Shown here: positions 35,852-51,684 of the stretch, one piece after another
How the letters are laid out: each line of letters begins with the position of its first letter
Numbering within the stretch: position 1 is the first letter of the stretch
Origin: an uncultured Acidobacteriota bacterium
Lineage (GTDB): Bacteria; Acidobacteriota; Vicinamibacteria; Vicinamibacterales; 2-12-FULL-66-21
Assembly (NCBI GenBank): GCA_963762995.1
Contig: CAVXMQ010000018.1
Span: 418,481-482,480, forward strand
DNA: 64,000 nucleotides
Direction: 5' to 3'
Notes under the pieces: model-generated
The model's database searches: none
Seen by the model: the letters and a program-made list of their open reading frames with translations, nothing else
What the model was told of the DNA's origin: nothing
Made by a program: the position numbers and the translations under genes

Positions 35852-36514
35852 GTGGATCAGCTTGTGTGGCTTCGTGTCGGCGCAGTTCTAACTATTTGTG
35901 CCCTGCTGGTGGTCGCGTCGAGATGGATACCAGTGACGATGCTGGATCCCGACGAGATTTCCGCGTGGGCGGAACCGTACCGCCATGCGTGGTACGCCCT
36001 GCCGATGGTCATGCTCGCGTTCGTCGCGTTCGGCCTCGCGCCTGTAATGCTGTTGATCACGCTGACCGGCATTGCGTTCGGTCCGGTGCTCGGACCGATC
36101 TATGCGATGGCCGGATCTCTTGCGAGTGCCTCGATGGGCTTCGGCATCGGCCGTTGGCTGGGCCTCGATCGTGTCGCGTGGCTCGGCGGTGAACGCGTCA
36201 CCACCGTGACACGCGCGCTGAAACGGAACGGCACGCTCGCGGTCTTCTTTGCCCGCAAGGTGCCGGTGCCGTTCATCCTCGCCAATATCGTGATGGGCGC
36301 CTCGACCGTGCGTTACCGGGATTTCCTCCTCGGCACCGCGCTCGGAATGACCGCCATCGTCATCGCGCTTGCCGGCTTCGGCTATCAGCTCACGCAGGCG
36401 CTGCGCAATCCCTCGCCAGGCACGGCGCTCACCGCGGCGGTGTTTGTCGTCGTACCGCTGACGTTGGCGTGGTTCATCAACCGCACCCTGCGTCGTGCGA
36501 GGCCGGCCGAATGA
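35852..36514 (+). CDS. TVP38/TMEM64 (VTT/DedA-like) family membrane protein
   Basis: From GTG 35852 (AAGGAA upstream): multi-TM protein with the VTT-type core GPIYAMAGSLASASMGFGIGRWLG...FFARKVPVPFILANIVMGAS. Confidence 0.7.
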   Translation: MDQLVWLRVGAVLTICALLVVASRWIPVTMLDPDEISAWAEPYRHAWYALPMVMLAFVAFGLAPVMLLITLTGIAFGPVLGPIYAMAGSLASASMGFGIGRWLGLDRVAWLGGERVTTVTRALKRNGTLAVFFARKVPVPFILANIVMGASTVRYRDFLLGTALGMTAIVIALAGFGYQLTQALRNPSPGTALTAAVFVVVPLTLAWFINRTLRRARPAE

Positions 36515-38668
36515 GTGGTGCCACGCAACGCGTGGCGGATCCCGGACGGAACTGCTGGCGGCTCGACCGCGCGGACCGCTTCTACTGTATCCAGGATGCG
36601 GCTCATTATTTTCAGCTGGTGAGACAGGCGCTGCTCGCAGCGCGCGACACGGTGTTCATCCTCGGTTGGGATATGGCCTCGACGATCGACCTCGCGCCAG
36701 GGCTCAGCGATGACGGCGCGCCGACCCGGCTCGATGCGCTGCTCGCCTTCGTCGCGAAGCGGCGTCCACACCTGCGTATCTACATCTTGATCTGGGACTA
36801 CGGTTCGCTCTACACGCTCGAGCGTGAACCGTTGACGCGCTGGCGGATGCGATGGCGTATGCCACGCGGGGTCCGCTTCAGATTCGATGATTACCATCCA
36901 GTCGGCGCGAGCCATCACCAGAAGATCGTCGTGGTTGACGATCAGTTGGCGTTTTGCGGCGGCATCGATCTGACGGGACACCGGTGGGACACGAGCGACC
37001 ATCGGCTCGAAGAGCCGGCGCGAAAGACCATCATGGGCCGGCCGTATGGCCCGTACCACGAAGTGCAGGCCATGGTGAGTGGACCGGCGGCAGCCAGTCT
37101 CGGCGTGCTCTCGCGTGATCGCTGGCGGGCCATCGGATACGACAAGCTGCCGCCGATCGGCGCGGCGAGTGACGATCTGTGGCCATCGGATACCGCGCCC
37201 GATCTGACCGGCGTCGACGTCGCGATCTCGCGCACGATGCCGCCCTCGAACGGGCAGCCGGCGATCAGGGAATGCGAAGCGTTGTTCCTCGATTCAATCG
37301 CGCGCGCGAAGCGGCTGATCTACATCGAAAACCAATACTTCACCGACGACACGCTCGCCGGCGCATTGGCCGCGCGGCTGGCCGAGCCCGATGGCCCTGA
37401 AATCGTGGTCGTGGTGCCGAAAGAATGCTTCGGCTGGCTCGAGCGGCAGTCGATGGGCGCCTTTCGCGATGTGGCCTTCCGACGAATGACGGACGCCGAC
37501 ACCTCCGGTCGGCTGCGGCTGGTCTATCCAATTGCTTCCCGAGCGCATGACGTTCCGACGTTCGTGCATTCGAAAGTGATGATCGTGGACGACGAGCTGG
37601 TGCGGATTGGTTCAGCCAACTTCGCACGACGGTCGATGGGCATGGACAGCGAGTGCGATCTGGCGGTGGAGGCGGGCGGCGACCCGCAGGTACGTGCTGG
37701 CATACGGCACGTTCGCGATCGGCTGGTCGCCGAGCACCTGGGCCTTGCCGTGGATGCCGTGTCAGGGGAGATCGAACGCCGCGGATCACTGTGCGCGCTG
37801 ATCGATGCGCAAAAAGGCGCCGACCGCACGCTGCTCCCGGTCGAACCGGTGACCGATCAGGTCGCCGAACCGTCGACGGTTCTTCGAGCCACCATCGATC
37901 CCGGCGAGCCACTGGGCTTTGGCCCGACGCTGACGCAAATGGTGCCGCCAATCAACGCGACGGGCGGAAGTAGTCCGCTGCGTCTGTGGATTCTGCCCGC
38001 GATCGCGCTCTTCGCTGCATTGGTGACATTCGCCGCGATCAACACGCGACCGGAATTCCAGGCGGTCCGGCGAGGCGCTGCAAGGCACAGCGAGCCTGCC
38101 GTCAGCGCTCTGGATGGGCACGACGGCGTTTGTGGTGGCGGGGCTGCTGCTCGTCCCGCTGGAATTGCTGACCATTGCCGCCGCCTTGGCGCTCGGTGGG
38201 GTGCGCGGCGGACTGGTGGCGGCCATTGGCTGGCTGGCGCTGGCGGTGATCGGCTACGTGGCCGGCCGCGCGATCGGCGCTTCGGGTGTGGCGCGGTGGG
38301 TCAGCCGGCGATCGTATCGATCGGTGCGCCAGCTCGGCGCCCACGACGTGATCGGCGTGCTCGTGCTGCGCCTGTCGAGCGTCGCCAGCACCGGGGCGGT
38401 TCATCTGCTGTGCGGCGCGGGCCGCGTCCCGTTCACGGCGTACATCGCCGGCACGATCATCGCCATGGTCCCCACGATCGTGGCGTTGAGCACTCTTGGG
38501 GATGTGTTCCGCCACGCGCTGCTCGATCCGTCGATGTCGAACGCGCTCACCACGATAACCGTCGCGGTGCTGCTCATCCTTCTCGCAAGCGCTGTCCGCA
38601 CGCTGCTGCTGATTCGCCAGTTCGCACCCTCGGTCGCCATGCATCGGGACCGCGCGGAGTTCGGGTGA
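36511..38668 (+). pseudogene. Phospholipase D-family (two HKD motifs) protein fused to a C-terminal VTT/DedA-like membrane domain, one frame break (or assembly indel)
   Basis: ATG 36511 overlaps the upstream stop (ATGA). HKD1 HHQKIVVVDD..GGIDL, HKD2 VHSKVMIVDD..IGSANF, TM LRLWILPAIALFAALVTFAAI. The VTT domain is ORF 38114..38668, one base out of frame. Break near 38060-38075. The 981-aa track ORF is a read-through in the wrong frame. Confidence 0.8.
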
Positions 38669-39414
38669 GAACACCGCCGCCGCCGAACCTTCGCGTCGCC
38701 ACCTACAACGTCCACGCGTGCGTCGGCACCGACGGACGCCACGATCCCGACCGCGTCGCCGGGGTCGTCGCCGAACTGGAAGCCGACATCGTCGCGTTGC
38801 AGGAATTCACCTACCCCGCCAGCGTCGCGATCGAATCCCGCATGCCGGTGACACTGACGATGCTGGACGGGTACGAGTGTCTGCTGGGGCCGACCCGTAA
38901 CACCGTGACCGAATGCTTCGGCAACGCGCTGTTCACCAGGCATCGCGTCGTCGACGTGCACCGCATCGACCTGTCGATGGAGCGCCGCGAACCACGCGGG
39001 GCGCTGGCTGCGACCATCGAGGTCCGCGGCACCGTCGTCCATGTGCTCGCCGCCCATCTCGGTCTGCGGGTCCATGAACGGCGTTTTCAGGTGCGCCAGA
39101 TCCTGGAGTATCTCGAATCGGTCCGCCGTTCGCTGGTGGTGGTGCTCGGTGATTTCAACGACTGGCTGCCCGGCCGATCGGCTGCGCACGTCCTCGACGA
39201 TCGTCTCGGCCGCCCGCCTCGTCCGGCGTCGTTTCCGGTGTTCTGGCCGATCGTGGCGCTCGATCGCATCTGGGTGAATCCCATCCATGCGCTGCGAGGC
39301 GTTTCCACTCACACCACGCCGGCGGCACGACAGGCCTCGGATCACTTTCCGGTGGTCGCCGACATCGACGTCAGCGTGGCACATGACCGCGCCGTCGGTA
39401 GTGGGTCAGTTTGA
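38665..39414 (+). CDS. Endonuclease/exonuclease/phosphatase (EEP) family protein
   Basis: GTG 38665 overlaps the VTT stop (GTGA). Blocks RVATYNVH, IVALQEF, VVLGDFND, ASDHFPV. Confidence 0.8.
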   Translation: MRTPPPPNLRVATYNVHACVGTDGRHDPDRVAGVVAELEADIVALQEFTYPASVAIESRMPVTLTMLDGYECLLGPTRNTVTECFGNALFTRHRVVDVHRIDLSMERREPRGALAATIEVRGTVVHVLAAHLGLRVHERRFQVRQILEYLESVRRSLVVVLGDFNDWLPGRSAAHVLDDRLGRPPRPASFPVFWPIVALDRIWVNPIHALRGVSTHTTPAARQASDHFPVVADIDVSVAHDRAVGSGSV

Positions 39415-39471
39415 AATTCGCTTCGGCCGTGCGAGACTGAGGCCGGACCGCCGCGTGGCAGGCAAAAGGCA

Positions 39472-39951
39472 ATGACACGAACCTGGCCAGAGGACTGGGA
39501 CGTCCGGAAACAAGGGGCGGGGTGCTGGTTTTGTGGGAACCAGCTCGGTCAGCCGTTTTACGCAGGAAGCGTGGGTGACGCACACCTGGAGCGACACGCC
39601 ATCGCTCGTGGCCATGCGATCGTCATCTTTCGAGATCGTCACGTGGCGGACTTCACGAGCCTGAGCACCTCCGAAGTCGCCGCGTACTGGCACGACATTC
39701 ACAGCGTCGCGCAGATGATCGAGCATGTGTTCGCGCCGTGCCACATGAACTACCAACTGCTCGGAAATTCGGTGCCGCACCTCCACGTCCACCTTGTGCC
39801 GAGGTACCTTGACGATCCGGCTCCGGGAAAACCGCTGCCCTGGGAGCCGAAGCCTGTCCCCCAGCCCGAGTACGACAGGCAGGTCCGGCTTCTGACTGAC
39901 GTCGCCAAGACTATCCGAGTGCCCGCTCCGACAACGCCAGATTCAAACTGA
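39472..39951 (+). CDS. HIT family protein
   Basis: 159-aa ORF with the histidine triad HLHVHLVPR. Confidence 0.85.
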   Translation: MTRTWPEDWDVRKQGAGCWFCGNQLGQPFYAGSVGDAHLERHAIARGHAIVIFRDRHVADFTSLSTSEVAAYWHDIHSVAQMIEHVFAPCHMNYQLLGNSVPHLHVHLVPRYLDDPAPGKPLPWEPKPVPQPEYDRQVRLLTDVAKTIRVPAPTTPDSN

Positions 39952-39975
39952 CCCACTACCGTCGGCCTCGGGTCC

Positions 39976-40005
39976 TTCGGACACCCGCCTATGTTCTGGT
40001 AGAAT
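39976..40005 (+). promoter_or_regulatory. Candidate extended -10 promoter for tRNA-Thr
   Basis: TTCGGA (39976-39981), 18-nt spacer ending in TGg, TAGAAT (40000-40005). The tRNA starts 22 nt downstream of the -10. Confidence 0.35.
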
Positions 40006-40026
40006 ATCGGCTTCCGCCCACGCCAA

Positions 40027-40102
40027 GCCGGCGTAGCTCAGTTGGTAGAGCAGCTGATTCGTAATCAGCAGGTCGTCGGTTCGAGTCCGACCGCCGGCTC
40101 CA
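40027..40102 (+). tRNA. tRNA-Thr (anticodon CGT), CCA encoded
   Basis: Hand fold: acceptor GCCGGCG/CGCCGGC, D arm GCTC-AGTTGGTA-GAGC, anticodon arm GCTGA-TTCGTAA-TCAGC, variable AGGTC, T arm GTCGG-TTCGAGT-CCGAC, discriminator T, CCA. 76 nt. Confidence 0.95.
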
Positions 40103-40210
40103 ATATCAGGCGGGGGCTTCGCCCCGCGCACCCCCTACACACTCACTCGCGCGGCGGCGCCGCGCTCCGTTCGCGTGGGCGCTCGCTTCGCTCGCGCTTA
40201 TCTTTCTTCG
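40056..40210. repeat. Direct repeat copy A (3' 47 nt of tRNA-Thr + 108 nt downstream)
   Basis: Matches 45900-46053 except one C-run length difference (ccccc vs cccc) and one substitution (gcgctta vs gcgccta). Confidence 0.9.
40110..40127 (+). terminator. Hairpin GCGGGG-(loop)-CCCCGC just 3' of tRNA-Thr
   Basis: GC-rich 6-bp stem 8 nt after the CCA. It is part of the duplicated flank (also at about 45954-45971). Confidence 0.35.
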
Positions 40211-40352
40211 TTAGGCGGGGGCTTGGCCCGCACTCCCCTACAAGCTCACCCTGTCCCCGCCCTAGCAGCGAAGCAGCGAAGGCTGATCGCACCGCGGTCG
40301 ATTTATGGGACATTGCGGACTCTACCCGATCAACCTCATTGCTGCATCCGGA

Positions 40353-40866
40353 TCAGAAGCGACTTCCTGCACCCCGGGGCTTGTTGCGAGGATCGTCGAC
40401 GGCGTTGACGTAGTTGATGGCCCACGGGCCGGTGCCATGAAGCTGAATCACCGTCTCCCCTTTGCCGACGCGTAATGGCGCGTGCCGGAGGGCATGAGCG
40501 CGAAGGCTCCTGCGCGGAGCTCGTGGCCCCCAGTCTGCTCGAACTTATCCCCAATACCCATCACGAAGGTCCCCTGCACGACCGTCACGTGCTCATCCGC
40601 GGGATGCCAGTGCGGTGGTAACCGGTACCCGTCAGGCATTTTGATTCGTAGCGTAAACGGGCCGGGCTTCGATGGATCGCCCTCGAGAGCGGCGGCCTGA
40701 GCACCTGGCGGCAACGAAGCGGGACCCGCAACCCACTTCGTGCCGTTGCCGGCGTGAACATGACGTGGGAACGCTTGACCTCCTGTGCCCCTATCGTGCC
40801 CGCCGTCCAGAACGCTGCGGCGCCGGTCACCATTGCGAGGGCAGCGAGGGCAGTTCGTGTTCGCAT
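40353..40866 (-). pseudogene. Secreted cupin-domain protein, two frame breaks
   Basis: ATG 40866 (GGAGGA upstream) gives MRTRTALAALAMVTGAAAF. Cupin core LPPHWHPADEHVTVVQGTF...PSGTRHYA is in the frame of ORF 40448..40714. The C-terminus GETVIQLHGTGPWAINYVNAVDDPRNK is in a third frame (stop 40353-40355). One-base deficits near 40738-40750 and 40455-40462 (G-runs). Confidence 0.7.
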
Positions 40867-41060
40867 TTTATGAAGTCCTCCTGGACTCAAAGGTCACAGC
40901 CACATGATCGATCCGATGCTTTGATGGCTATCCCCGACCAATCAGGTCCCATTGCATGTACGGGGCGCATTCAACACACGGCCTCGCCTACGACCGTAGG
41001 CCCACCATTACCGCGTGCAGGTTCGGGGTCTATACGCACGTATACCGAAGCCTTTGTTGT

Positions 41061-41699
41061 TCAGTGGCGGCGATAAACGGCGACCTGCCAGGGTCCTATC
41101 GCCTTCCAGAAGAAGCCAACGAGACCGGCCTCACTGGTCAGCCTGTCGATCACATCCGATGAGGGCACGGAGGCGTAAACGGGTCCGCGCCACACGAGCA
41201 GGTTCATCACATTCACTACCATTCTGACCGGCAGAGTGTCGCGTGGATAGACGAGCCCATACAAGCGGCGAGCTCGTGCCGCGGAGAGCTGAATCAATCG
41301 CTTCCAATCAGGACAGACGTTAATGACGCGGTCGAGCGTCACGATGTCGGCGGGAGGTATTGTTCCAGCAAGATCTAGGAAGTCACCATGGTGGTAGGCG
41401 ACCCGGCCGCTGAGGCCTCGACGCTCGCTTTCCTCCCGCGCCGTTTGGATATAAGCATCCGAGGCGTCGACGCTCGTCACATGGGCGGCTCCAGCGGCCA
41501 GCAGCTCGTGCTGGATCGCGCCGATTCCTCCGCCAATATCGATCACTGTTGCACCGTCGACGCCCTCTGTGCTGAGCGCATCAATCAGCATCCTCGTCGA
41601 CGGAATTGGCCCGTTGCGGCGATAGCGGCGCAGCTCAGACGCTGCCTTCCGTGTGTTGTAGAAATCGCCGAAATCCCTCACCGAAGGCGAATCAGGCAT
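41061..41699 (-). CDS. Class I SAM-dependent methyltransferase (paralog of 44976..45644)
   Basis: Start placed at ATG 41699 (MPDSPSVRDFGDFYNTRKAASELRRYRRNGP), parallel to the paralog N-terminus. SAM motif VIDIGGGIG. Confidence 0.75.
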   Translation of the reverse strand: MPDSPSVRDFGDFYNTRKAASELRRYRRNGPIPSTRMLIDALSTEGVDGATVIDIGGGIGAIQHELLAAGAAHVTSVDASDAYIQTAREESERRGLSGRVAYHHGDFLDLAGTIPPADIVTLDRVINVCPDWKRLIQLSAARARRLYGLVYPRDTLPVRMVVNVMNLLVWRGPVYASVPSSDVIDRLTSEAGLVGFFWKAIGPWQVAVYRRH

Positions 41700-41791
41700 T
41701 GCGCACACCCCAGCTTCCCACTGCGCCCGCGTCTGGGCGCTTCGCGCCGACAGTGGATTGGGCCTTTCTCCGAAGTGCTTGACACGCATAG

Positions 41792-41815
41792 TCAAGTATT
41801 ATATTGAATACTTGA
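41792..41815. promoter_or_regulatory. AT-rich 9-6-9 inverted repeat TCAAGTATT-atattg-AATACTTGA; candidate ArsR-type operator overlapping a promoter
   Basis: Perfect palindrome arms ending 2 nt before the ATG (41818) of the ArsR-rhodanese gene. TTGACA lies at 41779-41784, with TATATT/TATTGA -10 candidates inside the palindrome. Confidence 0.45.
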
Positions 41816-41817
41816 AT

Positions 41818-42520
41818 ATGCGCGACAGTCACCATCGAGAATTCAAGGACCGCTTTACGGCCAGTTCGCCCGGCTCGGGAAAGCGCTGTCCAACCCTCAT
41901 CGTCTCGAGATGCTCGAACTGCTGGCGCAAGGCGAGCGGACTGTTGATTCGCTGGCGACGGAGATCGGTCTCTCGGTGGCGAACGCCTCGCAGCATCTGC
42001 AGGCGCTCCGACAGGCGGCGCTCGTTGAAAGTCGGAAGGACGGATTGTTCGTGCACTACCGGCTTGCCGATCCGGACGTGTTCGAGCTGTCGAAAGTCAT
42101 TCGATCGGTGGCCGAACGACGTCTGGCTGAACTCGAACGATTGGTGAAGGAGCACTTTGGGCATCGCACCGACGCAGAGCCCGTTCCGATGGACGAGCTC
42201 CTCAAAGCGCGCCCGGTCAAAGCAGGTCGTCATTCTCGACACACGACCGACAAGCGAGTACATCGCTGGGCACATCCCGGGCGCGCTGTCGATTCCCGTC
42301 GATGATCTTCAGCGGCGTCTGAAGGAGCTCACCAAGAGCAAGGAATATGTGGCGTATTGCCGTGGCCCCTATTGCATCTACGCCGATCGGGCGGTCGAGA
42401 TTCTCCGGGCACAACGGCCGTCGCGCGCGACGGCTGGTCGAAGGATTTCCGGAATGGCGTTCGGCCGGATTCCCGGTGTCCCAAGGAAAGCGAACCAGGG
42501 TCGCTGAGCTGAAGTCGTGA
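41818..42520 (+). pseudogene. ArsR/SmtB-family transcriptional regulator fused to a rhodanese domain, three frame breaks
   Basis: MRDSHHREFKDRF / YGQFARLGKALSNPHRLEMLELLAQGERTVDSLATEIGLSVANASQHLQALRQAALV (wHTH) / QVVILDTRPTSEYIAGHIPGALSIP...YCRGPYC / GRRARRLVEGFPEWRSAGFPV. Breaks near 41854-41856 (T-run deficit), 42195-42225 and 42412-42420. Confidence 0.75.
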
Positions 42521-43869
42521 CGACGATGGCCGCCACGATTGGCACAGTGCGCCTTGGGCTCCGGGAGAACCTCGCGCAGTTCTCGCTCCTCGTCCTGGTC
42601 AACGCCTTCGTCGGCGGCATGGTGGGACTCGAGCGCACGGTCGTCCCGCTCATCGGCACCGAGGAATTCGGCATCGGCTCGGAGGTGGTGGTCTTCTCGT
42701 TCATCATCACCTTCGGTCTGATCAAGGCCTGCGTGAATCTCGTGTCCGGCTTGCTCGCTGATCGGTACACGCGCAAGACGGTGCTGGTGGCAGGTTGGGT
42801 CGTCGGCCTCCCAGTGCCGTTCATGCTGGCGATACGGGCCGTCGTGGGCATGGATCGTCGGCGCGAACGTGTTCCTCGGCATCAGTCAGGGGCTCGCCTG
42901 GTCGATGACGGTGAACATGAAGATCGACCTGGTCGGGCCTGGCCGTCGCGGCTTTGCCATGGGGTTGAACGAGGCTGCCGGCTACGGCGCGCTTGGCCTG
43001 ACCGCGCTGGCCACCGGCTACGTGGCTGCGCGGTACGGGCTTCGACCCGAGCCCTTCTATTTCGGAATCGTCTACTCAGCGCTGGGTCTCGTGCTCTCGG
43101 TCTTCCTCGTCCGTGACACGCGCGCACATGCCAGGTTGGAAGCATCGGCCCACAGTACATCCGAGCCGATCGACAGGCCTTCGACGGCACACGTCTTCGC
43201 CGAAACGAGCTGGCGAAACAAGACGCTCTTCTCCGCATCGCAGGCGGGACTCGTCAACAACCTGAACGACGGCATGTCGTGGGGCGTCTTCCCGCTGCTG
43301 TTCGTGGCAAACGGTGTGAGCCTGGAAGGAGTTGGACTGATCAAGGCCGTCTACCCGGTTATTTGGGGTGCCGGTCAAATCGTCACCGGATCCTTGGCCG
43401 ATCGGATCGGACGGAAGCCGCTGATCGTGTGGGGCATGCTCGTTCAGGCCGCTGGCCACGCGGTCATCGGGCTGGGCCTCGCTGCCCCCTGCTATCCGGT
43501 CTCGTCGGCTCAGTGTTGCTGGGTCTTGGCACGGCGATGGTGTATCCCGCCCTGCTCGCGGCCGTCGGCGATGTGGCTCACCCGGCATGGCGCGCCACGT
43601 CGGTGGGTGTCTATCGATTCTGGCGCGATCTTGGGTACGCGGTGGGCGCGCTGATGGCCGGTGTGGTCGCTGCCTTGTTGGGCCTCGTGTGGGCGGTGCA
43701 CGTCGCTGGGATTCTGACCGCGCTGTCAGGGCTCCTGGCCTGGGCACAGATGAACGAGACGCTGCCACGCGTCCGCATCGCGACTGACAGTGCTCCACTT
43801 CGAACCGTGGCGCCACGCGGGATTCCGCGACACCCCAGATACGTTGATTCTCTGCGGGGATTGAAATGA
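42517..43869 (+). pseudogene. MFS transporter, two frame breaks
   Basis: GTG 42517 overlaps the upstream stop. Three ORF-track pieces (42517.., 42869.., 43279..43869) join into a 12-TM-like protein (…LADRYTRK…, …SLADRIGRKP…). Breaks near 42828-42833 and 43484-43492 (C-run). Confidence 0.75.
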
Positions 43870-44971
43870 CCAACACGATCGAGACGAACACTTTGCGTGA
43901 CTGGCTCGAGGCACACCACCCTGTCGTGGTGCTGGACGTGCGGAGCGACGAGGATCATGCCCAATGGGCCATTCCAGGCAGCGTGCACATCAACGCATAC
44001 GAGGCGTTGCGCGCGGGACAGCCTGGTGCCTTGGCCAGCGCAATACTTCCGCACGACCGACCGGTGGTCACGGTATGCAATGCCGGTCGGGTGAGCCAGA
44101 CTGCCGCCGCATTCCTCGTCGAACGCGGTTTCGATGCGCGGTCTCTCGTCGGTGGTATGAAGGCGTGGAGCCTCGCGTGGAACACCGCCGACGTACCGCT
44201 CCCTGACGCTCGCGTCCAAGTCGTCCAAGTGCGCCGTACCGGCAAGGGATGCCTCTCATACGTCGTGGGCTCAGGGCCGGACGCCGTGGTGATAGACCCA
44301 TCCGTCGCCCCGGACGTCTACGTTGATTTGGCCGACCGTCGCGGATGGACGATTCGGTACGTGATCGAGACGCACATCCACGCGGACCACCTGTCGCGCG
44401 CGAAGGACCTGACCCAGCGAACGGGTGCCGCGCTCCTGCTGCCTGCGCAGCCCCGTGCCAAGTTTCCCTTCACTCCCGTCGCGGATGGCGAGCGCATACA
44501 GATCGGGAACGCGACACTGACCGCTCTACATACACCCGGCCACACGAACGAAAGCACGTCATACGTTCTCGACGATGTCGCCGTCTTCACCGGAGACACG
44601 CTCTTCACGAACGGCGTCGGACGTCCAGACCTGCATGCCAACGGCGAAGCCGCGCGCGAACGTGCCCGTGCGCTGTTTCTGTCGCTCACCAGGCTGCGAC
44701 AGCTCCCACCCGGGATGGTGGTGCTGCCCGCACACGCGGGCGAACCCATCCCGTTCGACCGGCAGCCGATCGCCACACGAGTGCACGACGTGTCGATCTG
44801 GTTGTCGGACTGGATCGCATCGCAATCGGCCTTCGTGGAACGGGTCACCTCCAGCTCCCGCCCACGCCGCCGAACTTTGTCCGTATCGTCGAGCTCAATG
44901 AGGCCGGGGAGTTTCCGACCGCTCACGCCGCCGAGCTCGAAGCTGGTGCGAACCGCTGCGCAGTGAGATAG
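43866..44971 (+). pseudogene. Rhodanese + metallo-beta-lactamase-fold protein (persulfide dioxygenase-like), one frame break
   Basis: ATG overlaps the MFS stop (ATGA). Rhodanese loop VTVCNAGRVS, MBL motif ETHIHADH, HTPGHT. The C-terminus QLPPTPPNFVRIVELNEAGE...EAGANRCAV is in the frame of ORF 44345..44971. One-base deficit near 44835-44855. Confidence 0.8.
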
Positions 44972-44975
44972 CCGT

Positions 44976-45644
44976 ATGCCAGCCTGTTGCTCGACGTTCG
45001 AACGTGCGGCGGAACAGCAGTTCAACGAAAAGAAGGCCGCGCAGGAACTGAAGCGTTACCGGACGAAGGGTCCAGGACCGACCACGCGGTTGCTCCAGGA
45101 GGGCATCGCCCAGGCAGGAGCGCCGAAGGGCACGCTGCTCGATATCGGGTCGGGAGTTGGTTCGTTGACGTTTGGGCTGCTGGAGCGCGGCATCACTGCC
45201 GCCGTCGCGGTCGACGCATCGTCGGCGTACAACGGCGTCGCTCGGCAAGAGGCGGAACGGCTCGGCCGAGAAGAGGCAGTGCAGTTCATTCATGGCGACT
45301 TCGTGACCGTCGCCTCCGAGCTGCCAATCGCGACGCTCGTCACCCTGGACCGTGTCGTGTGCTGCTATCCGTCATATGAACCGCTCTTGGACGCGGCACT
45401 CTGTCACACCGATCGGTGTCTCGCATTCTCCTACCCTCGCGACGTGTGGTACGTGCGCGTCGGGGTCGCGTTGGAGAACCTCCAACGTCGTGTTGCGAAG
45501 AACCCGTTCCGGACCTTCGTGCACCCTGTTTTCAGGATGGAACAGATGATTCGAGCGGCCGGTTTCGCGCTTGCCAGTCGACGCGAGACGTGGATGTGGT
45601 CTGTCGATGTGTATATGCGCGGAGATGGACGAAGTCGTCAGTGA
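44976..45644 (+). CDS. Class I SAM-dependent methyltransferase (paralog of 41061..41699)
   Basis: 222-aa ORF. N-terminal CC..F...AAQELKRYRTKGP, SAM motif LLDIGSGVG. Same block order as the paralog. Confidence 0.75.
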   Translation: MPACCSTFERAAEQQFNEKKAAQELKRYRTKGPGPTTRLLQEGIAQAGAPKGTLLDIGSGVGSLTFGLLERGITAAVAVDASSAYNGVARQEAERLGREEAVQFIHGDFVTVASELPIATLVTLDRVVCCYPSYEPLLDAALCHTDRCLAFSYPRDVWYVRVGVALENLQRRVAKNPFRTFVHPVFRMEQMIRAAGFALASRRETWMWSVDVYMRGDGRSRQ

Positions 45645-45665
45645 AGTCCCAGGACGCTCTGTGTT

Positions 45666-45800
45666 CTACAGCGGCGCGATTCGCCGTCCAGACGTGACCA
45701 GGAACACCGCCAACCGATCGCGGACGTCCGGAGGGACGCTTAGGCCGCGTCCCCATTCGATCGTGGCCTTCCACGAAACACCAAAGGCAGTGTGAGCCAT
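45666..45800 (-). CDS. Tiny ORF (44 aa) with strong RBS, unknown function
   Basis: GAGGAGG lies 5 nt before ATG 45800. MAHTAFGVSWKATIEWGRGLSVPPDVRDRLAVFLVTSGRRIAPL. Below the ORF-track cutoff. May be a remnant. Confidence 0.2.
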   Translation of the reverse strand: MAHTAFGVSWKATIEWGRGLSVPPDVRDRLAVFLVTSGRRIAPL

Positions 45801-45899
45801 GACACCTCCTCAGAGAGTGCGCCACCAACTGGCCCTCAGTCATTTCGTGACTTCGAGTGCCATGACAGCGTCGAGTAGGCACGTTCGCGAACAGAGACG

Positions 45900-46053
45900 G
45901 ATTCGTAATCAGCAGGTCGTCGGTTCGAGTCCGACCGCCGGCTCCAATATCAGGCGGGGGCTTCGCCCCGCGCACCCCTACACACTCACTCGCGCGGCGG
46001 CGCCGCGCTCCGTTCGCGTGGGCGCTCGCTTCGCTCGCGCCTATCTTTCTTCG
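45900..46053. repeat. Direct repeat copy B; first 47 nt (45900-45946) are a 3' fragment of tRNA-Thr
   Basis: gattcgtaatcagcaggtcgtcggttcgagtccgaccgccggctcca plus a 107-nt flank, near-identical to 40056-40210. No 5' half of a tRNA upstream. Confidence 0.9.
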
Positions 46054-46170
46054 AGCTTCGCCGCCGCTGACTTGCCGTCGGCGGCGTTGAGATAATTCCA
46101 CCCTGCCTCTTTGTAGGAACACGGCTACCATCACCCGGGCGCAATCCTGAGAACTGAAGGAGACTGCCTG

Positions 46171-47462: not shown

Positions 47463-47493
47463 CGAACACCGTCCACATGCCCTCGACGCGTCG

Positions 47494-51221
<3,728 letters not shown>

Positions 51222-51258
51222 GGGTTGTACGCGGCTCCGGTCCTGTAACCACAGGAGT

Positions 51259-51684
51259 CTATCGGACCTCGATCGCCTTCGCGAACCATTGCCGACCCAG
51301 ATTGGTGGGGGCGTGCGGCAGTGTCCCGAACGCGGTGTAACCGCCCTTCTCGTAGAAGCCTGGCGCCTGGAAAGTCATCGTGCTGAGAAATGCGACGCCG
51401 CATCCGCGGTCCGCGGCAATTTGCTCCGCTCGCTGCAACAACGCGCGCCCGAAGCCACGTCGTCGACTTCCCTCCGTGATCCACAGATCGGCGACGTAGA
51501 GAAACGTCCAGAAGATCTCGCCAACGAGGCCCCCCAGCAACTCCCCCTCGTCACCGCGGATCGACAGCGTCAGGTGTTGCGTGTTGCGCGGCCCGACCTG
51601 GCTCTCGTTCCATCGTTGAAGAGCCGCGGAGATCTCGGCAGCGACGGCGTGATCTTCTTCGAGCGTGATTCTGGGTCCAGTCAT
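51259..51684 (-). CDS. GNAT family N-acetyltransferase
   Basis: 141 aa from ATG 51684 (C-terminal part of ORF 51259..52131). Acetyl-CoA motif RRRGFGRALL. Confidence 0.8.
   Translation of the reverse strand: MTGPRITLEEDHAVAAEISAALQRWNESQVGPRNTQHLTLSIRGDEGELLGGLVGEIFWTFLYVADLWITEGSRRRGFGRALLQRAEQIAADRGCGVAFLSTMTFQAPGFYEKGGYTAFGTLPHAPTNLGRQWFAKAIEVR

Follow-up and report, generated by a model that had tools for sequence, protein, structure and literature searches.

The stretch of Vicinamibacterales DNA analysed here (the window, 64 kb long; all coordinates are window positions) contains an islet of ~5.8 kb that adjoins an intact tRNA-Thr(CGT) gene, the only tRNA gene that ARAGORN detects in the whole window. 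Six cargo genes lie between two directly oriented repeats, DR1 (155 bp) and DR2 (154 bp) (Table 1). The repeat starts inside the tRNA gene at tRNA position 30, 2 nt 5' of the anticodon loop, and extends 108 nt beyond the CCA end; the displaced tRNA fragment in DR2 is identical to tRNA positions 30-76 and lies downstream of the tRNA in the same orientation. The near-identity of these repeats, reported in the initial annotation of the locus, was borne out by alignment: segments 40056-40134 and 45900-45978 are 100% identical, segments 40132-40210 and 45975-46053 are 99% identical, and the global alignment of DR1 and DR2 contains exactly two differences, a C run near 40131 (C5 in DR1, C4 in DR2) and a substitution (T40198 versus C46041). 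Identity breaks off sharply at 40055/45899 and at 40211/46054, and parts of the repeat are present in two copies in the window, compared with zero expected from shuffled sequences.

Table 1. Features of the islet and its borders (L018 and L019 carry other copies of the cargo operon; L141 and L142 are syntenic relatives)
Feature	Positions	Strand	Basis or remark
Promoter-like site CGGACA-16-TAGAAT with extended -10 TG, ~22 nt upstream of the tRNA gene	39978-40005	+	Consensus scan only
Intact tRNA-Thr(CGT), integration target	40027-40102	+	ARAGORN; Rfam tRNA, 74.5 bits
DR1, left direct repeat: tRNA positions 30-76 and 108-nt trailer (flank A)	40056-40210	+	Repeat search and alignment
Terminator-like hairpin and T-tract closing flank A; the repeat end is the end of the tRNA transcription unit	40173-40207	+	
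A', ancestral chromosomal continuation of the tRNA flank	40211-40290	+	Alignment to L141/L142
Left junction, an illegitimate joint of cargo and chromosomal flank that share ~3-5 nt of GC-rich microhomology (CGG/GCGG)	40291-40295		
Cupin gene with signal peptide, broken over three frames (pseudogene as assembled)	40336-40866	-	Pfam Cupin_2/DUF4437; tblastn with the intact L019 orthologue, frames -2, -1 and -3
Scar of a ~0.9-kb deletion; the pyrroloquinoline quinone (PQQ) beta-propeller gene of L018/L019 is gone	40976-41000		
MT1, class I S-adenosylmethionine (SAM) methyltransferase, intact	41061-41699	-	Pfam; full-length single-frame match to the L019 orthologue
Imperfect 35-nt inverted repeat between the divergent MT1 and ArsR-rhodanese genes	41766-41841		Core CAAGTATT...AATACTTG
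ArsR-rhodanese fusion regulator, at least three frame changes (pseudogene as assembled)	41818-42507	+	Pfam HTH_5 and Rhodanese in separate open reading frames (ORFs); intact orthologues of 229 amino acids (aa)
Site of the missing 204-aa methyltransferase gene and 45-aa ORF of the parent operon	42513-42543		Identity to L018 jumps from 86% to 97%
Major facilitator superfamily (MFS) transporter with three single-base indels (pseudogene as assembled)	42517-43869	+	
Rhodanese-metallo-beta-lactamase (MBL) protein, persulfide-dioxygenase type, one frameshift near 44853	43866-44971	+	
MT2, class I SAM methyltransferase, intact; cargo homology stops at its stop codon	44976-45644	+	
P254, unique 254-nt arm preceding the displaced tRNA fragment, with an orphan 44-aa ORF inside (45666-45800, -)	45646-45899		
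DR2, right direct repeat: displaced tRNA-Thr 3' fragment (45900-45946) and copy of flank A (45947-46053)	45900-46053	+	
N80, unique spacer of 83 nt containing a GC hairpin (10 bp) and, at 46067-46096, a promoter-like site; located where A' and 51 nt are found in L141/L142	46054-46136	+	
140-aa membrane protein gene, first gene downstream of the islet syntenic with L141/L142	46171-46593	+	

The initial annotation had taken the complete tRNA gene and its displaced 3' fragment for a footprint of integration, and this view held up when the locus was compared with a syntenic relative and with metagenomic copies of the same tRNA gene. Among 5.8 billion proteins, the 140-aa membrane protein encoded downstream of DR2 has only two relatives, the source genome's own copy and a protein on a farmland metagenome contig (L141); the gene is also present on a short contig, L142. 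L141 matches the window from position 46137 on at 88-93% identity, and the sequence just upstream of the tRNA gene (39986-40026) is conserved there as well. The tRNA-Thr(CGT) gene of L141 is followed by a different, integrase-bearing element of 4.6 kb (L141 4967-9735), which comprises a gene for a 432-aa tyrosine integrase directly beside the tRNA, an HTH_17 excisionase-like gene, a second integrase ORF of 283 aa near attR (the annotated gene has 181 aa), and a displaced tRNA 3' fragment. Its att repeat is 50 nt long with 86% identity and starts at TTCGTAATC, within 2 nt of the start of the window repeat at GATTCGTAATC, while the regenerated L141 tRNA has a 3' half that was supplied by the element and carries compensatory T-stem changes. 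As read from the alignment, this att structure is a textbook signature of integrase-mediated insertion.

To survey the site more widely, metagenome contigs (JGI; L021-L140) were scanned for exact matches to the last 40 nt of tRNA-Thr(CGT), which yielded at least 120 loci. The 122 exact 40-mer matches listed include 85 in full tRNAs and 35 in displaced fragments, and every one of the 35 displaced fragments among them loses identity just 5' of (GA)TTCGT, a shared boundary in the anticodon loop. Homologues of the L141 integrases are encoded within ~1.2 kb of the tRNA match at 13 or more loci among the matches listed, and the displaced fragments listed include several recurrent left-arm families, such as one beginning GACGCGGCCTGACGCGCTCTGACTCG... 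in at least 10 or so contigs. These patterns indicate that several putative element families target tRNA-Thr(CGT) in sediments and soils, and they show the gene to be a recurrent target of integrases. Since the 35 fragments and L141 share this boundary, the left edge of DR2 corresponds to the canonical crossover boundary. The right junction of the islet, where P254 meets the tRNA fragment (45899/45900), shows the exact geometry of an attR formed by tyrosine integrase crossover in the anticodon loop. None of the at least 120 metagenomic loci listed shares flank A, P254, N80 or the cargo with the islet, the exact pattern of tRNA end plus flank had no match in metagenome contigs or viral contigs, and the 47-nt tRNA half was absent from the viral contigs searched.

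Flank A is the native tRNA trailer with its terminator, and DR1 is thus predicted to span the 3' part of the tRNA transcription unit. The initial annotation had proposed checking whether this flank is a high-copy dispersed repeat. Within the 881 kb searched, it was found only at its two sites in the window and at the orthologous position of L141 and L142, and it occurs in none of the at least 120 metagenomic tRNA-Thr loci. That flank A is a REP-like dispersed repeat whose duplication here is coincidental would draw some support from A', which opens with a stretch ~80% identical to the first 40 nt of A. However, the A/A' tandem is also present in L141 and L142 and so predates their split from the window lineage as an old local duplication; together with the distribution of flank A, this leaves the dispersed-repeat explanation with practically no credence for the sequence available, and we rejected it. 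The copy covers the start of A' (window 40211-40250; L141 9844-9880) and ~40 nt of the trailer, with the duplicated parts consisting of a hairpin (GGCGGGGGCTT.GCCC) plus CCCCTACA, and the tandem may have been left behind by previous events at the site.

The sequences that follow the two copies of flank A differ. In L141 and L142, A' comes immediately after flank A, and then come 51 nt (B) and the membrane protein gene; in the window, A' lies behind the left repeat and the unrelated N80 lies behind the right repeat. Window positions 40058-40290 align to L141 9686-9914 at 86.6% identity; for A' alone, identity to L141 and L142 is 83% over 65 nt. Homology to L141 stops at 40290, and homology to the cargo operon copies L018 and L019 begins at 40295. 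Because A' is ancestral and precedes the cargo on the left, the foreign DNA actually begins at 40291-40295 and not at 40211, so the initial view of a simple unit with foreign DNA from 40211 onwards had to be abandoned. Likewise, since A' stands behind DR1 and N80 behind DR2, the segment 40056-45899 is no simple insertion into a tRNA-A-A'-B locus.

This arrangement also bears on the length of the repeat, which the initial annotation had considered too great for a usual att core. Because the ancestral A' lies beside it, the 108-nt extension represents a native or captured tRNA trailer and not part of an att core. The length as such is within the reported range: in a Klebsiella survey, repeats of tDNA islands measured 15-221 bp, and 27 of 162 such islands had no integrase (bioRxiv 10.1101/2020.11.02.365908). 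We infer that the 155-bp repeat is not a giant att core, that its left edge is the old crossover point, and that its right edge is where two versions of the downstream flank of the tRNA diverge, which here is the end of the terminator.

The absence of an integrase or recombinase between the repeats, as first noted, was confirmed by four approaches. The gene map of the islet has no gap longer than 254 nt; peptides from the gaps had no Pfam match; tblastn of both L141 integrases (Int1 and Int2) against the 64-kb window gave no match below E = 0.5; and a six-frame scan of the window for tyrosine-recombinase box motifs found none, with the sole match being the H-box of a histidine kinase. A hidden integrase in the islet was therefore rejected. 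Genes for transfer or integration are likewise missing among the islet genes. A composite transposon or other unit bounded by insertion sequences does not fit, in that no transposase domain was found and the boundaries are the 155-bp direct repeats with a tRNA fragment. P254, which is presumably the P arm of a fossil attR, shows no similarity to any retrieved locus and no Pfam match, and a protein search with its 44-aa ORF gave matches only in the source genome.

The cargo could be traced to an operon that is found elsewhere. MT2 alone has thousands of soil homologues, some of them 93-98% identical, and the segment 40295-45645 aligns to five loci (L018, L019, L020, L143 and L144) at 85-97% nucleotide identity. 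Homology ends exactly at the MT2 stop codon (45645) on one side and just outside the cupin stop codon (40295) on the other. Identity is mosaic, with 85-89% in the left part of the cargo and 94-97% in the right part, and the window copy lacks the PQQ beta-propeller gene, the 204-aa methyltransferase gene and the 45-aa ORF of the parent operon. No tRNA, repeat or integrase lies near the operon copy at any of the five loci, which are apparently chromosomal, and a conserved DinB/ArsR/AHSA1 neighbourhood comes after the operon at L018, L143 and L144. The sole transposase was found at L144, where an rve-family transposase (L144 6245-8871) stands in the place of the ArsR-rhodanese gene together with the 5' portion of the MFS gene, leaving an MFS protein truncated to 191 aa. 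Since the operon copies elsewhere lack a tRNA, att repeat and integrase and the window copy is reduced, the cargo is, as far as these alignments tell, an excised, reduced part of an operon that, in its other known copies, lies outside recognisable mobile elements.

The identity of the cargo genes given in the initial annotation (a cupin, two methyltransferases, an ArsR-rhodanese regulator, an MFS transporter and a rhodanese-MBL protein) was confirmed, but they do not form the intact, coherent set that was described there: four of the six genes are frameshifted, leaving only MT1 and MT2 intact as assembled, and three genes of the parent operon have been deleted. Intact orthologues of the regulator (229 aa), the MFS transporter (447 aa), the rhodanese-MBL protein (368 aa) and the cupin (167 aa) match the window only across several frames; in tblastn, the cupin and the regulator each required three frames, the MFS transporter at least two shifts and the rhodanese-MBL protein one shift. 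Nucleotide alignments placed ~9 one- or two-base indels in the four disrupted genes, most of them outside long homopolymers, while a plot of GC content at third codon positions (GC3) was too noisy to place the frameshifts. In contrast, the nine genes common to the window and L141 (~6.6 kb) are each full-length in a single frame, so that 7-9 frameshifts in ~4.9 kb of cargo coding sequence compare with none in the shared genes. Under a uniform rate, the binomial probability that at least seven indels all fall in the cargo is ~0.003. Two other accessory genes of the window are frame-switched as well (see below): either accessory DNA is decaying in the source genome, or the accessory regions of the metagenome-assembled genome have a poorer consensus. 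The three whole-gene deletions are not sequencing errors.

With respect to function, the resemblance to BigR-Blh and CstR-CstB modules that had been proposed extends to the family level of the MBL and ArsR parts, and at that level an analogy to sulfide/persulfide systems appears reasonable. The MBL domain is nearest to persulfide dioxygenase-rhodanese fusions, namely 3tp9, BpPRF (5ve3), 3r2u and ETHE1. We take 3r2u to be S. aureus CstB; the search tool names it only as a metallo-beta-lactamase family protein. The helix-turn-helix part of the regulator is similar to BigR (3pqj, 1e-8) and to the ArsR-family regulator 6o8k (3e-9), which is presumably SqrR although the tool output does not call it so. 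The closer likeness did not stand, since the NCBIfam models for Blh (NF040641; 55 bits against a cutoff of 625) and BigR (NF040642; 44 bits against 155) scored far below their cutoffs and the architecture differs. While the cargo shares an ArsR-family regulator, a persulfide dioxygenase (PDO)-type MBL domain and rhodanese domains with BigR-Blh, CstR-CstB and SqrR-type modules, it departs from them in several ways: the rhodanese domain precedes the MBL domain, the regulator carries a fused rhodanese domain of its own, transport is assigned to an MFS protein and not to TauE, and two to three SAM methyltransferases and a cupin are added. The 35-nt inverted repeat between the divergent MT1 and regulator genes is a plausible candidate for an ArsR operator.

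Taken together, we consider it probable that the islet is a decayed, non-autonomous remnant of a genomic island that targeted tRNA-Thr(CGT) and that it resembles a cis-mobilizable element (CIME). Since A' lies to the left of the cargo, the incoming DNA either brought along captured flank from a chromosome or represented the attR-side end of a close relative's island. In the first case, a product of aberrant excision of the lambda-bio type, devoid of its integrase end, would have been inserted via a helper integrase or by RecA acting on the 155-bp homology; in the second case, the DNA would have entered through one homologous anchor and one illegitimate joint. On both routes the junction of P254 and the tRNA fragment would be a fossil attR, and the integrase would either never have been in the islet or no longer be there. 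With the tRNA intact and the cargo largely dead, the islet is most likely inactive today.

As a tentative possibility for the first case, a close relative's island would have excised aberrantly, taking along the tRNA 3' half, A and A' and losing its integrase end, and the resulting circle would have inserted into a tRNA-A-N80 locus of the source genome via a helper integrase or RecA and the 155-bp homology. Among Campbell-type solutions, only this topology places A' before the cargo and N80 behind DR2, and it accounts for the start of the repeat at the crossover site, its end at the A'/N80 divergence, the missing integrase and the microhomology joint at 40291-40295. It takes several steps, however, and needs N80 to be the native spacer although the sole relatives have A' plus B and no tRNA-A-N80 empty site was found. 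For the second case, which we regard as similarly tentative in the following form, a resident tRNA-A-A'-B-gene locus would have received a linear fragment from a close relative, carrying the attR-side island end (cargo-P254-tRNA fragment-A-N80-gene), with a homologous anchor on the right, an illegitimate A'/cargo joint on the left and deletion of B. The position of A' directly behind A in the window, L141 and L142 makes the left side look native, the 51-nt B is absent, the left joint has short GC-rich microhomology, and homology-facilitated illegitimate recombination is an established mechanism (PMC3240628). Yet no donor-type locus was observed, flank A of the donor must be 99% identical to that of the recipient while the adjacent spacer is unrelated, and the model presupposes natural competence or another means of DNA uptake in this lineage.

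Several observations weigh against a decayed remnant. P254 has no similarity to the P arm of the L141 element, and descent of the islet from that element was rejected on account of the dissimilar arms. Neither an empty site nor an integrase-bearing parent of the islet was found in the one syntenic lineage compared (L141/L142, ~90% identity). The two arrival routes both fit the topology. The window apparently comes from a metagenome-assembled genome, and other accessory genes in it are also frame-switched (a CheB/CheR/histidine kinase gene and a PLD-VTT-EEP gene, described below), so the cargo frameshifts could be consensus errors in low-coverage, strain-variable regions instead of real decay.

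If so, the islet might be a live CIME with functional attL and attR sites that is served by an integrase from another part of the genome or from a co-resident element, which we regard as unlikely. The two repeat copies are 99% identical and contain the anticodon-loop core used by integrases at tRNA-Thr(CGT), their C-run difference, located in a homopolymer, may stem from faulty sequencing, the frame-switching of the other accessory genes would fit consensus error in variable regions, and CIMEs are documented (PMC5704250, PMC3146451). However, there is no integrase in the 64 kb, the core genes on the same contig have no frameshifts, and the three whole-gene deletions relative to intact copies cannot be sequencing errors. 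In addition, the arm beside DR1 is the ancestral chromosomal flank A' and not the P' arm of an element, so arm-type binding sites are unlikely on the left side. Of the two readings offered initially, a cis-mobilizable element and a decayed island, the latter fits best. The apparent origin of the window from a 676,856-bp contig of a metagenome-assembled genome and the frame-switching in accessory regions, which suggests lower consensus quality there, could also mean that a chimeric or strain-collapsed assembly joined the second repeat and the cargo to the locus. We consider this artefact very unlikely, since both junctions are sharp and biologically sensible, one lying at the same anticodon-loop edge as in 35 independent fragments and the other at the end of a terminator, and since synteny with L141 resumes cleanly on both sides; moreover, long reads greatly exceed a repeat of 155 bp, from which a mis-join would not normally be expected.

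The decayed remnant that we favour shares much with known tRNA-associated islands. As described for Islander, tDNA islands encode a tyrosine integrase, recombine in the anticodon loop, and leave a regenerated tRNA and a displaced 3' fragment (PMC4383910; Williams 2002 cited there); the tRNA-plus-fragment principle and the prevalence of anticodon-centred sites come from the same work (PMC4383910). The islet has a full-length, intact tRNA at one boundary, a directly oriented displaced 3' fragment that starts in the anticodon stem/loop at the canonical crossover sublocation (2 nt 5' of the loop), a size in the range of such islands, and an integrase-bearing element in the same tRNA of a relative. 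The tyrosine integrase gene that Islander asks for was found neither in the islet nor in the 64-kb window, and for this reason Islander's own filter would reject the islet. It further differs in that the ancestral chromosomal flank, not an element arm, lies to the right of the regenerated tRNA and that repeat identity continues 108 nt past the tRNA.

CIMEs are islands that have lost recombination and transfer genes and have kept attL and attR (PMC5704250), and 15 integrase-less islands at ssrA are known from Dehalococcoides (PMC3146451). Like these, the islet is bounded by att-like repeats, lacks recombination and transfer genes, and sits at a site that integrase-bearing elements use. The core sequence is present at both ends, but the arm beside the candidate attL is the chromosomal flank A'. 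Unlike CIMEs, the islet has no adjacent tandem element, its left arm is chromosomal, and its cargo is decaying; derivation from an integrative and conjugative element or an integrative and mobilizable element is only a candidate origin. In transducing derivatives of phage lambda of the bio and gal type, aberrant excision captures flanking chromosomal DNA and loses genes at the opposite end. Under the circle-insertion model, the islet would have arisen similarly, with chromosomal flank (the tRNA 3' half, A and A') joined illegitimately to element DNA, the integrase end lost, and insertion dependent on a helper or on homology; it differs from lambda bio/gal in having no phage genes, and the event is deduced from topology only.

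Three further features of the window lie outside the islet. Upstream of the tRNA gene, a unit of ~565-570 bp (39397-39960) contains only a gene of the HIT family (HxHxH; ORF 39472-39951, + strand) and ends in perfect 19-nt terminal inverted repeats (GGTAGTGGGTCAGTTTGAA). A scan of genome representatives found it at 14 loci of acidobacterial metagenome-assembled genomes with 82-94% nucleotide identity, no flanking synteny on either side and no tRNA; in the closest relatives homology begins and ends at the inverted repeats, and one genome has two copies plus a solo repeat. In the window, the unit replaces ~270 nt of a DUF6970 gene that lies upstream of the tRNA in L141. The unit looks like a small mobile cassette without a transposase, although no clear target-site duplication was seen. 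Further upstream, an open frame of 981 aa (36469-39414) encodes PLD domains at its start and an endonuclease/exonuclease/phosphatase (EEP) domain at its end, with a VTT/DedA domain encoded in another frame (38114-38668) and Arg-rich nonsense in the in-frame middle; the whole probably represents a PLD-VTT-EEP fusion gene in which two frameshifts compensate each other. Downstream of the islet, where L141 has just 45 nt, the window carries an insertion of 4.1 kb (47464-51604) that encodes one large CheB-CheR-PAS-HisKA-HATPase-receiver protein whose gene is split over at least three frames, with the CheB and PAS domains each divided between ORFs.

Islets that lack an integrase and lie between repeats at tRNA genes are well documented, and the sole unusual aspect of the present one is its long repeat, which derives from a captured or shared trailer and leaves the ancestral flank on the "wrong" side of the cargo. 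Taken alone, the islet is of little importance beyond offering a clean and well-delimited case from the poorly studied soil lineage Vicinamibacterales. It illustrates that a long "att repeat" can come from a captured or shared tRNA trailer and not from a recombination core, which calls for caution with automatic island callers that take the repeat length as the att size and set the island boundary at the repeat edge. A bolder proposal, which we hold to be quite unlikely, is that the islet represents integrase-free movement of cargo between close relatives, with the captured tRNA 3' half (155 bp from anticodon loop to terminator) serving as a portable homology arm. If this were true, a remnant carrying such an arm could insert beside the same tRNA in conspecifics via RecA or any passing tRNA-Thr integrase, with the tRNA regenerated each time. 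For the lineage as a whole, the locus marks tRNA-Thr(CGT) as an integration hot spot in Vicinamibacterales and suggests that a widespread soil operon, comprising an ArsR-rhodanese regulator, an MFS transporter, a rhodanese-PDO-like MBL protein and methyltransferases, can be picked up by elements of this kind.

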